A DNA stretch of 64,000 nucleotides. Source: an uncultured delta proteobacterium (GTDB lineage: Bacteria; Desulfobacterota; Binatia; UBA9968). The notes beneath the pieces were generated by a model. It searched no databases, was not told the origin of the DNA, and saw only the letters and a list, made by a program, of their open reading frames with translations. Numbering within the stretch: the stretch's first letter is position 1; each line of letters begins with the position of its first letter. Location of the stretch: NCBI GenBank assembly GCA_963816145.1, contig CAWFJP010000004.1, forward strand, positions 128,001 to 192,000, in the 5' to 3' direction. Position numbers and translations under genes: made by a program. Of this stretch, positions 25,987 through 47,782 are shown piece after piece.

Positions 25987-27834
25987 GTGAGATTCGTGGC
26001 GGAAGATAAAAACGATCAGCCGTTGGGAAGCCAGACAATTGGCGCTGCCAATGGGAAAGACGTGTTATATGGTTGGCTTGTCGGTCGGGCTGCGGCCGAT
26101 CTCGGATTGGCACAAGCGATCGCCGCAAGCGAGGCGCAACGGGCGGAACAGATCAAGCGTCTCGAGGCAGCGTTGCTCGGGCAAATGCGTGAGCTGCAAA
26201 ACAGTCAAGCAACGTTTTCCGGATCGTCCGTAGACGGAGCTGAAGTCGACCGACTGAAGGATCAATTCCAGCAATTTGGCGAACGGCAAAATTTTCTCGA
26301 GGCGCAACAGCTTACCATTGGGCAGATCGAAGCCCAGTTATCAGCTAAAATTGTCGAGCTGCAAGCTCAGATCGAGCAGCCGCCAGCGGCGGCTGCCAGC
26401 GCCGAAGTTAACGCGCTGCGTGCCGAAATGGCCGGGTTCGCCGAACGTCTCGCGCAGGCCGAGGCGTGTGCAACGCGCGAACCTGCGCCAGTAGATAGTC
26501 GTCCGGTTGAGGAGCAAATTGCCGTCGTCGTGCGCGAGCAAACCGAAGAGCTGAAAACCCAACTATTCGAGCACCTCCAAAGACAAACTGCTGTCGGCTA
26601 TGAACTCAAGACTCTGGAGACTGCTTTCCAGCAAAAGCTCGATGGCTTGAAACAAGAGATCCGGGAGAAGGCCGCGCTCTTGCGCTTGCGCGATGGCGAA
26701 CTAAGTGAACTGCGGGTTCAACTTGCCCGCGTGGAGCAGCGGCTCGATCAAGTGGCGGCAACGCCGCCGCCCGAAACCAGCGCCAGCGAGCGGGAAGCGG
26801 AGCGGGCGCTGTGGCAGCGCGACTTCGACGAACGGTTAAGCGTCCGCTTGCGCGAGTTGGGCGACGAGATTCGCGTCAAGCTCCACGCAGTGACCAGCGC
26901 CAACGTCGATCAAGAACAATTTCACGGCGAGACTATGGCGTTGACGGCGCGCATCGCACAGTTGGAGCACTCCCACCAGGAAGCCAATTCTGGCGCCGCG
27001 GTGGAGGCGCGCGAAGCCTACCAAGCCACGGTGGCGTTGCGCGGCGAAATAGCGGCGTTGAAAGCCACGCTCGTAGAACAGCAAAGCACCCAGTCCAACG
27101 ACGGACTGATTCGCAGTGTGGAGGAGATGTTGTGCGGCCAAGTTCACGAACTCCACAATCAGATCGCGCAAAATCAGCGCGGCGGCCTCGAATGGGAGAA
27201 GCAAATAAAAGATTTGCGCGTCGATCTTCAATCGCTGATGCAGCGGCAAATCCAATCGGAGTCGTTGGCCCAGCAGACCCATGCGCGGGAGACTCAAGAA
27301 ACCGCGCAGATCTGCGGCGGCCTTAAGTCCGATCTGTTGGCGATCGAGGCGCAATTGAACGAACAGCGTTCGCGCGATGCGGCGCTGCAAGGCATGGAAG
27401 AGACGTTGAATCTGCGCCTGCGCGAGATACATAGTCAGTTGGCCCAGGGGATGTCGGCGCTCGACCAGCGCGACGGCGAGTTGCGCGATCTCAAGAATCA
27501 AGTACAGCACCTGGCGCAACAGGTCGGTCAAAGCGGTCAGGCGGCGTCGTTTGCGTCCCTTAGCCGGCCAGATCCGGTGGCTGCGATTCCTGCGGTGGCG
27601 CCATCAAGTGGAGTCATGTCTGGGCTGCAAGCGGCCGAGCTGCGACCAATGGCTGCCGCAGGCAGCGCGGATACCATGCCGAATTTATTACAGCCGGTTG
27701 TACCCGGCAATGGCCACGCAACGGATCAGAGTAAGATTTCGCCGATTGATTTACATGACCGTCTGTCCGCGGAGATCGAGCGCAAACGGGCCGAGCTGCG
27801 AGAAAAGAGCGGCCGCTGGAAAGTGCGGCAGTAG
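25987..27834 (+). CDS. Large coiled-coil protein of unknown function with internal repeats
   Basis: 615-aa E/Q/L/A-rich heptad ORF, no TM or signal peptide; start may be GTG 25987 or 25996. Confidence 0.85.
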   Translation: MRFVAEDKNDQPLGSQTIGAANGKDVLYGWLVGRAAADLGLAQAIAASEAQRAEQIKRLEAALLGQMRELQNSQATFSGSSVDGAEVDRLKDQFQQFGERQNFLEAQQLTIGQIEAQLSAKIVELQAQIEQPPAAAASAEVNALRAEMAGFAERLAQAEACATREPAPVDSRPVEEQIAVVVREQTEELKTQLFEHLQRQTAVGYELKTLETAFQQKLDGLKQEIREKAALLRLRDGELSELRVQLARVEQRLDQVAATPPPETSASEREAERALWQRDFDERLSVRLRELGDEIRVKLHAVTSANVDQEQFHGETMALTARIAQLEHSHQEANSGAAVEAREAYQATVALRGEIAALKATLVEQQSTQSNDGLIRSVEEMLCGQVHELHNQIAQNQRGGLEWEKQIKDLRVDLQSLMQRQIQSESLAQQTHARETQETAQICGGLKSDLLAIEAQLNEQRSRDAALQGMEETLNLRLREIHSQLAQGMSALDQRDGELRDLKNQVQHLAQQVGQSGQAASFASLSRPDPVAAIPAVAPSSGVMSGLQAAELRPMAAAGSADTMPNLLQPVVPGNGHATDQSKISPIDLHDRLSAEIERKRAELREKSGRWKVRQ

Positions 27835-27942: not shown

Positions 27943-28659
27943 ATGGCCAACGGAAACAGGGTGCCGACCGGAATCGTCGAACTCGATGCGCTCATCGAAG
28001 GCGGCTTGCGGGCCGGTAAAACATATCTCGTCGTCGGTGAGCCGGGGACGGGCAAGACCGTTTTCGGCTTGCAGTTTCTCGTCAACGGTTTGATGGAGAA
28101 AGAACGAGGGCTTTACGTCGCCATCGACGAAAAGCCCGCCGACGTGCTCGACCAAGCCGCGTCCCTGGGCTGGGACCTGGCGCCGTTTATCGAGTCCAAA
28201 GAGTTCGTCATCCTCGATGCCTCGGCTTATTTCAGCGGTAGCAGCGATACCCAGAAAAAAATCGATGTGCAACGGGTAGTCGCTGACCTCAATGCTTATA
28301 TCACGCGCATGGGCGCCACCCGGCTGGTGATCGATCCGGTGGGACCGCTGTTATTCAACCGCGAAGCGACATCGCGGGCGCCGGATCAGGCGCGTATGCT
28401 TTTCTACGGTCTCCAGGCCAATGGCAATACGACGAATCTGCTGACCACTTATTCGGTCGAACGCAACGTCCGCGGCCTGGAAGAATATCTCGTCGCCGGT
28501 ACCATCGTACTAGAAATGGAGTTGGTCAAGAGCCGCTTCGTGCGCACGTTGACCATTGAGAAAATGCGCAGCACGGCGTTGGCGCCGGCGCAGTATTTGT
28601 TCAATATCGTTGCCGACCGTGGCATTGTCTTGCAAGGTTTGAGCGATGCCGCGGGTTGA
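27943..28659 (+). CDS. Single-domain KaiC/RAD55-like ATPase (RecA superfamily)
   Basis: RVPTGIVELDALIEGGL, Walker A GEPGTGKT, Walker B RLVID, IEKMRS. Confidence 0.9.
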   Translation: MANGNRVPTGIVELDALIEGGLRAGKTYLVVGEPGTGKTVFGLQFLVNGLMEKERGLYVAIDEKPADVLDQAASLGWDLAPFIESKEFVILDASAYFSGSSDTQKKIDVQRVVADLNAYITRMGATRLVIDPVGPLLFNREATSRAPDQARMLFYGLQANGNTTNLLTTYSVERNVRGLEEYLVAGTIVLEMELVKSRFVRTLTIEKMRSTALAPAQYLFNIVADRGIVLQGLSDAAG

Positions 28660-31814: not shown

Positions 31815-33872
31815 TCACACCGCGTGCAAAAATTGCCGATGGCTTTCGATCAAATCGGCAAACTGAGTTAGCTCTTCCTTTGCCACACCCGGCGGAAATT
31901 TTGCCGCGCTGCGGCGCCAGCGCGCCAGCCACTTTTGGTCGAGCAGCGGCGGTGCTAGCGGATGCCGGGCAGCACTCTCATCTCGGTTGAACGCGATCGT
32001 GGTCTCGGTCTTCGGGCCGGTGCCGACGCCTCGGGCGACAAAGAAGCCGGCGCTGAGCAAGGCGACGCGCACGGCGGTGGATGCCGAATAAGTGTAGAGT
32101 TCGGCGGGCTTGGCCAAGCATCGGCGAAAGATTCGCGCAAAAATGTCACTGGTCCAAAGTGCCGCGTCGGTTTTGTACGAGAATGGATCATAAAAAATCA
32201 GGTCGGGGAGCGCTGCCGCTTCGATGCAGTCGCGAAAGTCTCCTTTCAGAAGTTGCCATTGCAGCTGTTCCGAGAGGTGTCGCCAGCTGCCGTGGGAGAG
32301 AATTTTGGACGGCGCGCTGTGGTGCAGGTGCGGGAAGCAGGCGGAATGTTTGGCGGCCAGGATGAGCGGATCGAGATCATGCTCGAAACTAATCAGCCGC
32401 AGAGGTCGCAGCCTCGTGTCGTGGCTCTCGGCGAAGCATCGCTCGAAGCAGTAGAGCGCTGCCATGGCATTGGTGGCGGCGCCGAGGCCGACATCCCAGA
32501 TCACCAACTCGACCGCGTTGTTGCCGGCTTCGATTAAGCGCGCGGCGAGGGCTGACTGCTCGATGTAAAGTTTGTTGGCTTCCTCGCTCGGTGCGCTCAC
32601 CGAATGCATGATTTCACCGGAGCTGATTTGGCGAATGCTGTAGAACCCCTGCACCGAGCGGTGCAGTTCGTAATCGCCCAGGCGGGACGGCTGGGTTGTT
32701 TTGTTTTTCTTGGGCGGACGAGTCGGATTTTCTTCATCGGCGCGTTTCAGTTCACCGCGCATTTGTTGGTAATAGGAGGCGAAGTCGCCGTCCAGGATTT
32801 GCATGCGCATTTCCCGCATCAGGCGATGGTAAAACGCCAGGTTGTGTATGCCTAAGAGGTGCCAGCCGAGCACCTCATCCGATTTGATCAAATGGTGCAT
32901 GTAGGCGCGCGAGTACTCTCGGCAGCATCGGCAATCGCAGCGAGCGTCTACCGGCTCTTCGACAAATTTATGCACGGTGCGGTGCAACTGTAGTCTGCCG
33001 TGGGAAGTAAAGGCGATGCCGCGTTGCGCCAGTTGCGTCGGGATTATGCAATCGAACATATCGACGCCGCGATGCACCGATTCGAGCAGATCGATGGGCG
33101 TGCCGACGCCCATCAGATAACGCGGCAGGTTGGCGGGCAGGTGCTCGGTGACCCATTCGGTGAGGTCGTAACGCTCGGCGTGGGTTTCACCGACTGCTAA
33201 GCCGCCGATGGCCAAGCCGTTGAAGGGCAGTAGGCGTAAAAACTCTGCGCTGGCTTTGCGCAAATCGTGCTGACAACCACCCTGGACGATACCGAACAGC
33301 GCCGCCGGCGCATCGCCATGAGCGCTGAGCGCGCGCACGGCCCAACGGTGCGTAAGTTCCATGGCCGCCTGGGCTTGGGCGTGAGCGGCGGTGGCAGGGA
33401 TGCATTGATCGAGCACCATCATGATATCGCTGCCGATGGTTTGCTGCATGGCGATGCTCGACTCGGGGGATAGGAGAAATGTTTTACCGTCGATGTAGCT
33501 TTTGAAGCTTGCTCCGGCTTCATTCATTTCTCTTGAATGGCGCAGCGAGAATATTTGAAATCCGCCTGAGTCGGTGAGAATCGGGCCCTCCCAGTTCATG
33601 AAACGATGAATGCCGCCAAATTTTTTGAAGACCTCGGCGCCCGGGCGCAGCAGCAAGTGATAGGTATTGGCGAGGAGCAGCCGCGCGCCGGTTTCTTTGA
33701 GGCTTTCCACCGTTTGCGCTTTGACCGTCGCTTGAGTGCCCACCGGCATGAAGATCGGCGTTTGGACCGCACCATGGAGTGTCTGAAAAGTTGCAGCGCG
33801 TGCTCGTGATCCGGGCGACTCGGCATCCAAGGTGAACGGCAATCGGTTATTACCGCGCGGTGAAATTGCCAT
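31815..33872 (-). CDS. tgt: tRNA-guanine(34) transglycosylase fused to an MnmC/MnmD-like SAM-dependent methyltransferase
   Basis: TGT: TPIFMPVGT, LANTYHL, TDSGGFQIFSL, GGLAVGE, RYLMGVG, DMFDC, CDCRCC...HN zinc site; C-terminal ~280 aa: GEIMHS, WDVGLGAATN, LISFEHD, GDF, YDPFS...LW, TYSASTAVR...AGF. Confidence 0.92.
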   Translation of the reverse strand: MAISPRGNNRLPFTLDAESPGSRARAATFQTLHGAVQTPIFMPVGTQATVKAQTVESLKETGARLLLANTYHLLLRPGAEVFKKFGGIHRFMNWEGPILTDSGGFQIFSLRHSREMNEAGASFKSYIDGKTFLLSPESSIAMQQTIGSDIMMVLDQCIPATAAHAQAQAAMELTHRWAVRALSAHGDAPAALFGIVQGGCQHDLRKASAEFLRLLPFNGLAIGGLAVGETHAERYDLTEWVTEHLPANLPRYLMGVGTPIDLLESVHRGVDMFDCIIPTQLAQRGIAFTSHGRLQLHRTVHKFVEEPVDARCDCRCCREYSRAYMHHLIKSDEVLGWHLLGIHNLAFYHRLMREMRMQILDGDFASYYQQMRGELKRADEENPTRPPKKNKTTQPSRLGDYELHRSVQGFYSIRQISSGEIMHSVSAPSEEANKLYIEQSALAARLIEAGNNAVELVIWDVGLGAATNAMAALYCFERCFAESHDTRLRPLRLISFEHDLDPLILAAKHSACFPHLHHSAPSKILSHGSWRHLSEQLQWQLLKGDFRDCIEAAALPDLIFYDPFSYKTDAALWTSDIFARIFRRCLAKPAELYTYSASTAVRVALLSAGFFVARGVGTGPKTETTIAFNRDESAARHPLAPPLLDQKWLARWRRSAAKFPPGVAKEELTQFADLIESHRQFLHAV

Positions 33873-33875
33873 GAC

Positions 33876-34001
33876 TCGGATTATCTCTCGCAAAGGCGCT
33901 AAGGCGTCAAGTTCGAAAAGGATGGATAATAAATATTTTGACTGGTTTTAATCTTCTTCTCCGGACTTAGCGTCCTTGCGCCTTTGCAAGAAAAAATCCG
34001 A
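33876..34001. repeat. About 125-bp element with ~40-bp imperfect terminal inverted repeats (MITE-like)
   Basis: TCGGATTATCTCTCGCAAAGGCGCTAAGGCGTCAAGTTCG (33876-33915) is near-complementary to CGGACTTAGCGTCCTTGCGCCTTTGCAAGAAAAAATCCGA (33962-34001), with an AT-rich core. Confidence 0.65.

Positions 34002-47705: not shown

Positions 47706-47782
<77 letters not shown>

Follow-up and report, generated by a model that had tools for sequence, protein, structure and literature searches.

A tRNA-guanine transglycosylase paralogue fused to an MnmC2-fold methyltransferase: a possible second 7-deazaguanine branch in bacterial RNA

What does a tRNA-guanine transglycosylase (TGT) do when it is joined to an MnmC2-fold methyltransferase in a genome that also carries a canonical tgt? 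The question is raised by one open reading frame (ORF) in a 64,000-nucleotide stretch of DNA from an uncultured delta proteobacterium of the Binatia (GenBank assembly GCA_963816145.1, contig CAWFJP010000004.1, positions 128,001 to 192,000 of the forward strand; the whole stretch is called the window below, with its first letter as position 1). The ORF lies on the minus strand and encodes 685 residues, running from an ATG at 33872, the equivalent of the start point of its homologues, to a stop codon at 31815-31817 (31815..33872); an alternative in-frame TTG start is found at 33893 (31815..33893). Queuosine is the only 7-deazaguanine modification known from the tRNA of bacteria, where TGT is credited with one task only. 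We find that the fusion of TGT and methyltransferase is genuine and widely conserved, and that its TGT half belongs to a separate monophyletic paralogue lineage. We tentatively propose a coupled activity, a reading that could well prove wrong, in which a non-canonical guanine would be exchanged for 7-aminomethyl-7-deazaguanine (preQ1), which would next be N-methylated on its aminomethyl group.

A Pfam scan of the ORF returned PF01702 (TGT) at residues 23-373 (E 3.4e-142, 474 bits) and PF05430 (Methyltransf_30) at residues 529-627 (E 1.6e-15, 57.6 bits against a gathering score of 22), and no other family. The TGT half (residues 1-385; 32718..33872, minus strand) was delimited from Pfam, NCBIfam, alignment with the Zymomonas mobilis TGT and an AlphaFold2 (AF2) model. 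It is followed by a basic linker at about residues 380-399 (…NPTRPPKKNKTTQPSRLG…; 32676..32735, minus strand) and by the S-adenosylmethionine (SAM)-dependent N-methyltransferase half (MT; residues 400-685; 31818..32675, minus strand), whose MnmC2 fold was assigned from PF05430, a family profile, AF2 and Foldseek and which ends in a family-specific C-terminal extension (…WLARWRRS…HRQF). The translated TGT half shows DSGG, LDQC, GGLAVGE, FDC, PTQLAQRG and a CxCxxC...H zinc site, and the MT half GEIMHS, DVGLGAATN, ISFE, GDF, YDPFS..LW, TYSASTAVRVALLSAGF and GTGPKTE. The original prediction, of a complete TGT joined by the basic linker RPPKKNKTTQP to an MnmC/MnmD-type domain, is thus borne out by two Pfam domains and by every motif that it quoted. 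In the AF2 model of the whole protein, built from an alignment of 33 fused sequences, the mean predicted local distance difference test score (pLDDT) is 88.4 and both halves are well folded, with pLDDT mostly above 85 in the TGT half; the MT half modelled alone reaches 95.2, with a predicted template modelling score (pTM) of 0.93. The two halves are predicted to be joined by a flexible, disordered linker (pLDDT below 50 at residues 387-392).

The two-domain architecture is not peculiar to this contig. With the MT half as query, a word-indexed search retrieved 1874 proteins (E ≤ 0.001), and both Pfam domains were present in all 120 of the listed homologues, to which the domain check was applied. 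These carry the names of Binatia, 'Deltaproteobacteria' and Udaeobacter metagenome-assembled genomes (MAGs), and all are annotated plainly as Tgt. In a collection with one genome per species at least 580 stretches matched, and we examined the best 80 loci; they come from MAGs named Binatia, 'Deltaproteobacteria', Opitutaceae and other Verrucomicrobiota, Riflebacteria, and Bdellovibrionota/Oligoflexia. The halves share one frame in 78 of these 80 loci from named genomes, and the remaining two (L054 and L085; L, G and C numbers are our handles for loci, genomes and contigs) are cut by a contig end. An assembly artefact, which the original prediction had thought homologues might reveal, is ruled out by the 120 two-domain homologues and the 78 single-frame loci. 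Among 151 genomes sampled from the host's own phylum, the fusion was found in the host only, so its distribution is patchy, and no Methyltransf_30 domain at all was found in the host's four classmates (same class, in this sample). A compositional sign of recent horizontal arrival was sought and not seen, the local G+C content being flat at 0.54-0.60. We did not find the fusion itself described in the literature, in a search without most subscription journals and supplements.

Does the TGT half still exchange bases, and for which base? It scores 440.9 bits against the NCBIfam Tgt model TIGR00430 (cut-off 306.75), compared with 132 against the archaeal TgtA model (cut-off 350), and aligns with the Z. 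mobilis TGT at E 1e-104 (phmmer). In Z. mobilis numbering, Asp102, Asp156, Cys158, Gln203, Val233, Glu235, Asp280 and the zinc ligands are retained, which confirms that the catalytic aspartates, the zinc site, and the Cys and Val taken beforehand as marks of a preQ1 enzyme are all in place. According to the accessible parts of PMC3660597 and PMC10164549, Cys158 and Val233 are determinants of the bacterial, preQ1-using TGT, and a GGhsG motif marks the preQ1/queuine type as against the preQ0 type. The pocket of the fused enzyme is of the preQ1 type throughout, with Asp156, Cys158, Gln203, Gly230, Leu231, Val233 and Glu235 all present.

We placed this half among other TGTs in a tree of 160 sequences (FastTree, the only program used for our trees). 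The 97 fused sequences and 4 unfused ones form one clade of 101 tips with a Shimodaira-Hasegawa-like support of 100 and a stem of 0.65 changes per site, and no canonical TGT falls inside it. We then set 78 distinct members of the clade against 24 canonical TGTs encoded in the same genomes, two ambiguous Riflebacteria copies being dropped. All 78 keep Asp102, Ser103, Asp156, Cys158, Gln203, Gly229, Gly230, Leu231, Val233, Glu235 and Asp280, as well as the zinc ligands Cys318, Cys320, Cys323 and His349. In the window protein the two catalytic residues are Asp101 (Z. mobilis Asp102) in the DSGG motif (33570..33572, minus strand) and the nucleophile Asp274 (Z. mobilis Asp280) in MFDC (33051..33053, minus strand). 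Such invariance bears on the idea that the TGT half no longer exchanges bases and is an anticodon-loop binding module that delivers the MT, like the inactive QTRT2 subunit of eukaryotic TGT. Changed RNA-contact residues, the flexible linker and the appearance of accessory TGT-like subunit (QTRT2) structures among the PDB matches speak for such a module, but an invariant nucleophile, general acid/base, base pocket and zinc site would be unexpected in it, and we regard this explanation as improbable.

The RNA contacts are where the clade departs from its canonical counterparts. In the window protein Arg286 is replaced by Gln280, Arg289 by Gln283 and Asn290 by Arg284, so that the canonical PTRSGRNG of the Z. 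mobilis alignment reads PTQLAQRG (residues 278-285; 33018..33041, minus strand), the clade-specific counterpart of PTRxxRNG. This motif had already been singled out as odd in the original prediction, and it proves to be a hallmark of the whole paralogous clade, in which position 286 is Gln in 76/78, position 289 Gln in 72/78 and position 290 Arg in 78/78, whereas the canonical TGTs of fusion genomes have Arg286 and Arg289 in 24/24 each. Variant motifs in the clade are PTAMAQQG, PTKHAQQG and PTAHAEQG, and Arg never occurs at position 286. Further consistent differences lie at Z. mobilis positions 49, 69, 127, 140-147, 157, 162, 174, 226, 240 and 282 and, with 286, 289 and 290 themselves, at 304 and 332. 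We take Arg286 and Arg289 to be readers of U35, a role that we did not find in the papers accessible to us. Since both arginines are lost, the RNA target of the fused TGT probably differs from that of canonical Tgt. We infer that the TGT half would still replace guanine with a preQ1-like base, but where another nucleotide follows on the 3' side.

What kind of methyltransferase is tethered to it? MnmC2 (MnmD) converts nm5(s2)U34 of tRNA to mnm5(s2)U34. Against the NCBIfam MnmC2 model NF033855, residues 419-628 of the window protein score 77.2 bits, below the cut-off of 136, and ten relatives that were tested score 61-94 bits; the whole MT family therefore lies outside NCBI's definition of MnmC2. 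It is nevertheless of that fold. The MT-family profile matches Aquifex MnmC2 (3vyw) with E 2e-26 over positions 8-232, with a family-specific C-terminal extension of about 50 residues beyond the match, and the top Foldseek matches of the MT model are the MnmC2/MnmC structures 2qy6, 3vyw, 3ps9 and 3awi (E 4e-15 to 2e-12). Motif I, the SAM-binding GxGxGxN as defined in the accessible parts of PMC3527978, is DVGLGAATN (residues 460-468; 32469..32495, minus strand), and motif IV is YDPFS (residues 561-565; 32178..32192, minus strand) with the catalytic-type Asp562; 33 fused proteins share Asp460, Gly462, Gly464, Asn468 and Asp562 without exception. The same parts of PMC3527978 place a DxFxP-type motif IV around the methyl donor and assign its Asp as the catalytic base of the Aquifex enzyme.

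The loop that follows motif IV is remodelled. In 120 fused MTs it reads DPFS[A/S/Y]KTD[S/T/A].LW, as against D[P/F/A][Y/F]SPK.NPE[M/L]W in 80 standalone relatives, as in Aquifex and E. coli MnmC2, although the standalone set was picked partly by low similarity to the fused query, a caveat on this contrast. At both positions that are mostly Pro in the standalone relatives, Pro is outside the three commonest residues of the 120 fused MTs, and Asn has become Asp in 94 of them. The full DxFxP plus KNPE(L/M)W acceptor loop, kept in Aquifex and E. coli, was not found in the fused MTs.

An exhaustive search with the MT half gave 1927 cluster representatives, 246 of them at E ≤ 1e-30. Among the best 150, fused forms are about 660-740 residues long and standalone forms, which span the whole domain and its C-terminal extension, about 270-320; we classified 32 as fused, 80 as standalone, 26 as fragments and 12 as starting in the last TGT helix or the linker, the last being probably cut fusions. 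A tree of 120 MT rows, which left out 33 representatives with fewer than 235 aligned residues, has two groups with support 100, one of 41 nearly all standalone rows and one of 79 in which fused and short forms are mixed. The clusters of P0126, P0141 and P0178 are TGT-less standalone MTs of about 280-300 residues that NCBI or the JGI names 'queuine tRNA-ribosyltransferase', a name probably carried over from fused relatives.

If the fusion acts on preQ1, does it replace the later steps of queuosine synthesis? The host genome encodes a canonical Tgt of 373 residues with PTRNGRNG, and its gene directly adjoins queA on contig C30 (the window lies on C4). This is the only queA match in the genome, so the earlier observation that the window itself has no queA holds. 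The host also has queG, queF, mnmG and mnmE; a weak second 'QueF' match is FolE by its motifs, and a scan of the host genome for an MnmM-type enzyme (PF06962) found none. The host assembly is listed at 99.47% completeness and 6.72% contamination. Neither the second tgt nor the queuosine genes share a contig with the window, so there is a small chance that some come from another organism; the recurrence of the two-tgt pattern in 27-29 of 30 other fusion genomes speaks against any effect of this on the result. In those 30 genomes a further TGT match is present in 29 and is full or near full length in 27 (in G151 the copy is fragmented and interrupted by stop codons, in G176 only a 34-residue stretch matches, and in G175 nothing does), while queA is found in 28 and mnmG in 29. 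The fusion is thus an added enzyme rather than a replacement for QueA and QueG, because the host and most carriers keep queA and a canonical tgt.

These counts divide the original prediction. A second canonical tgt, one of the things that it proposed to look for, is present in most carriers, which as a rule do not lack queA or mnmG; the host itself also has queG and mnmE. N-methylation of tRNA-preQ1 is chemically sensible and survives as the leading reading; as an alternative to QueA/QueG maturation on the same tRNAs it is unlikely, and the changed anticodon-loop contacts point to a different target guanine rather than to competition for the same GUN tRNAs. Two side observations concern the second copies of these genes. 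A canonical-type TGT in G171 (G171:C5:47446-48519) sits in a 716-residue open frame, the same length as the fused copy on C7 of that genome. Three Riflebacteria genomes (G165:C10:55922-62064, G175:C50:12236-18066 and G178:C47:565-6229) each have two full-length mnmG genes a few kilobases apart on one contig, with both copies exceeding the TIGR00136 cut-off.

We asked how the paralogous TGT, the MT family and MnmC are distributed relative to one another. In a sample of 121 Bdellovibrionota genomes, 41 have a strong MT-family match, which in 29 lies in a frame long enough for a fusion; of 30 loci that were fetched, 23 proved to be fused. Ten genomes of this phylum lacking the MT family were examined, and each carries one TGT, a canonical one. 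An unfused paralogue-type TGT was found in four genomes (G443, G409, G447 and, at a contig end, G412), each with at least one MT-family gene, which lies on another contig in G443, G409 and G447. In the genomes examined, the paralogous TGT always occurs with the MT family, and the MT family does not need the paralogue. G383 has both a fusion and a bifunctional MnmC above the two NCBIfam cut-offs (MnmC2 191.7 against 136, MnmC1 214.3 against 174.2), and G363 has a standalone family member and a bifunctional MnmC above the cut-offs, with an MnmC2 score of 222; in G362 and G398 the fusion is accompanied by MnmC2-like proteins at 126 and 125.5 bits. Fused and standalone MTs occur together in eight of the sampled Bdellovibrionota genomes and in G169. 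To regard the fused MT just as the MnmC2 of its cell will therefore not do, because G383 has a bona fide MnmC and at least nine genomes have both a fused and a standalone MT.

Displacement of bifunctional MnmC by the fusion was considered for the phylum of G156, in which matches in frames of 565-1037 residues (taken as bifunctional by size alone) occur in 45 genomes and in none of three fusion genomes. It was rejected as a lineage effect, since no such match was found in 121 genomes of the class concerned. In G458 an MT gene stands next to a TGT in which Arg286 is Thr (PTTVARNG); this TGT groups with canonical copies and was not counted as support. At that locus (L210, G458:C91, 4953-8537) the standalone MT gene is divergent from the PTTVARNG tgt and is followed in its own direction by a gene for a 477-residue protein resembling, by motif, a MiaB-type methylthiotransferase; the second tgt of G458 lies elsewhere.

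Five observations lead us to favour a coupled model, tentatively and with somewhat less than an even chance: the fusion is conserved, the paralogue depends one-way on the MT family, the preQ1-type exchange site is intact whereas the RNA contacts have changed, the acceptor loop is remodelled, and a bona fide MnmC can coexist with the fusion. The TGT half would first swap for preQ1 a guanine that canonical Tgt does not take, most likely a wobble G34 with a 3' neighbour other than U35. The tethered MnmC2-fold domain would then move the methyl group of SAM to the 7-aminomethyl nitrogen, giving 7-(methylaminomethyl)-7-deazaguanosine, a secondary amine that would probably no longer be a substrate of QueA. 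Its formula would be C13H19N5O5, with a calculated [M+H]+ of 326.146 against 312.130 for the preQ1 nucleoside; nanopore sequencing is reported to detect precursors of Q (PMC10639084). The logic would be that of bifunctional MnmC, whose MnmC2 domain methylates an aminomethyl group that the other domain has uncovered. Architecture, conservation, paralogy and the patterns of residues and co-occurrence are observed; from them we infer which substrates the two halves take, in what sequence they act and what they make.

Several results weigh against this coupled model. The MT half keeps every catalytic MnmC2 motif together with the MnmC2 fold, and it is the sole Methyltransf_30 domain in the host; a second Methyltransf_30 match is likewise lacking from 24 of the 30 other fusion genomes, and 29 of the 30 have MnmG. 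Standalone MTs do without the paralogue: the Bdellovibrionota genomes that have only a standalone MT carry a single canonical TGT in 8/8 cases, standalone-MT genomes of the Verrucomicrobiae have one canonical TGT in 12/13, and queA is present in 23/23 standalone or unfused genomes. By these same counts we rejected two roles for the standalone MTs, since mostly they are not partners of an unfused paralogous TGT and they do not substitute for QueA. The pTM of the whole-protein model is 0.57, so that no fixed geometry between the two active sites is predicted; queF is above its cut-off in just 26 of the 30 fusion genomes; there is no conserved neighbour, the largest shared cluster covering 9 of 81 loci; and no preQ1 or other riboswitch was found in the window or in six loci. 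An N-methyl-preQ1 nucleoside in RNA was not found in the literature, most subscription journals being outside the search.

The two halves might instead work independently, as the original prediction had allowed in its simpler alternative of a bifunctional enzyme acting on different tRNAs. The MT would then be an MnmC2/MnmD analogue for mnm5(s2)U34, with nm5(s2)U34 supplied by the ammonium route of MnmEG, and the TGT would be another Tgt that inserts preQ1, one whose choice of tRNAs may have shifted; joining them would do no more than bring together two anticodon-loop enzymes. Besides the motifs, the fold and the frequent lack of a second Methyltransf_30 domain in genomes with MnmG, this fits a host that has mnmE and mnmG and no MnmM-type enzyme, the occurrence of standalone relatives without any paralogous TGT, and a canonical MnmC(2)-like match in just 5 of the 41 Bdellovibrionota MT-family genomes, a count confounded by lineage. 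It leaves unexplained why the paralogous TGT is never found without the MT family, and why a redundant Tgt should keep distinct RNA-contact changes across several phyla. The bona fide MnmC of G383, the nine or more genomes with fused and standalone MTs together, an acceptor loop that differs from that of MnmC2 and family scores under the MnmC2 cut-off tell against it too, and no help comes from the apparent mutual exclusion of fusion and bifunctional MnmC in the phylum of G156, which reflects lineage. Weakened by the remodelled loop and by the co-occurrence with MnmC in one genome, independent activities are in our view an unlikely explanation, though one to be taken seriously.

The coupled model has preQ1 inserted first and methylated afterwards. 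Were the order reversed, the MT would methylate the free preQ1 base and the paralogous TGT would then insert N-methyl-preQ1. That would account for the paralogue's dependence on the MT family, and it fits small near-pocket changes in the clade (Glu157 to Gln in 77/78, Thr159 to Ile/Val). Yet the residues that fit closely around preQ1 (Val233, Cys158 and Leu231) have not changed, standalone MTs exist where the only TGT is canonical, and the characterised MnmC2 enzymes described in the accessible parts of PMC3527978 act on tRNA rather than on free bases. A reversed order has in our judgement only a slim chance of being right.

Neighbouring the fusion in the window are genes for SurE (downstream, on its own strand), CinA (divergent), an M3 peptidase and ornithine cyclodeaminase, and a PADLOC search for defence systems gave no match. 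The guanine exchanged before the MT acts might lie in rRNA, another RNA or DNA. The TGT family is plastic enough for that (DpdA acts on DNA, and the accessible parts of PMC5699537 report that bacterial TGT modifies mRNA in vitro), and the residues on the U35 side are lost. However, the fused TGT scores as a bacterial Tgt well above the equivalog cut-off with a motif of the preQ1 rather than the preQ0/DpdA type, and it stands in no defence island, DNA-metabolism context or conserved neighbourhood; we give a target outside tRNA very little credence. Elsewhere in the window, a 615-residue ORF without a Pfam match (25987-27834, plus strand) lies directly upstream of a gene for a single-domain KaiC-like ATPase of 238 residues (27943-28659, plus strand), and one tRNA gene (47707-47779, plus strand) is the sole Rfam match at the gathering threshold. 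Among standalone MT genes the only recurring neighbour is leuS, from which the MT gene is divergent in three Bdellovibrionota loci (L127, L129 and L185); in L128 a standalone MT lies beside an RlmF-like RNA methyltransferase (PF05971).

What would the family mean? It represents a second conserved TGT lineage, with no fewer than 1874 relatives in the database and 580 or more matching stretches in the one-genome-per-species collection. It is possible, although we would not rely on it, that this widespread family installs 7-(methylaminomethyl)-7-deazaguanosine outside the U33-G34-U35 context, for example at a non-GUN wobble position, as a second 7-deazaguanine branch independent of queuosine. A coupled activity would mean that bacteria make a modified nucleoside not described before, that TGT has a further target and that the MnmC2 fold has been put to another use, and it would explain the two tgt genes of many genomes. 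Independent activities would instead point to a large unannotated family of probable mnm5U methyltransferases that now goes by the name of queuine tRNA-ribosyltransferase.

How does the fusion compare with the systems that it resembles? With bacterial Tgt (Z. mobilis TGT, PDB 1ozm/1enu; TIGR00430) its TGT half shares fold, length and the catalytic, pocket and zinc residues. It differs in being a separate paralogue alongside the canonical tgt-queA pair rather than the genome's orthologous tgt, in lacking Arg286 and Arg289, in about a dozen further clade-specific changes in the inserts that contact the anticodon loop, and in its C-terminal methyltransferase. With DpdA and archaeal TGT, which insert preQ0, it shares the TIM-barrel superfamily, whereas its pocket (GGLAVGE) is of the preQ1 and not the bulky preQ0 type and its neighbours are housekeeping genes. 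The closest chemical precedent is DpdM (DUF3109), the phage dPreQ1 methyltransferase, which acts downstream of DpdA2 and gives mdPreQ1 in DNA according to the accessible parts of PMC10516641; the change is the one proposed here, N-methylation of the aminomethyl group of preQ1. DUF3109 is an unrelated metal-binding family (CxxxCxxCC) that acts on DNA, and it was not found in the fusion ORF. Natural methyl-preQ1 was found only in phage DNA (PMC10516641, accessible parts) in a literature search that had most subscription journals outside it.

With MnmC2/MnmD (Aquifex DUF752, 3vyw; the N-terminal domain of E. coli MnmC, 2qy6/3awi) the fused MT shares the class I N-methyltransferase fold, the GxGxGxN of motif I and the Asp-x-Phe of motif IV with its catalytic Asp. 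It is set apart by its score (77 against the cut-off of 136), by the extension of about 50 residues at its C terminus, by the replacement of the SPxKNPE(L/M)W loop with S[A/S/Y]KTD..LW in the fused clade, and by its partner, which is a TGT and not the FAD oxidase MnmC1. In bifunctional MnmC (MnmC1 oxidase plus MnmC2) the design principle may be the same, with the difference that the partner in the fusion is a base-exchange enzyme instead of an FAD oxidoreductase and that the order of the domains is reversed, the methyltransferase being C-terminal.

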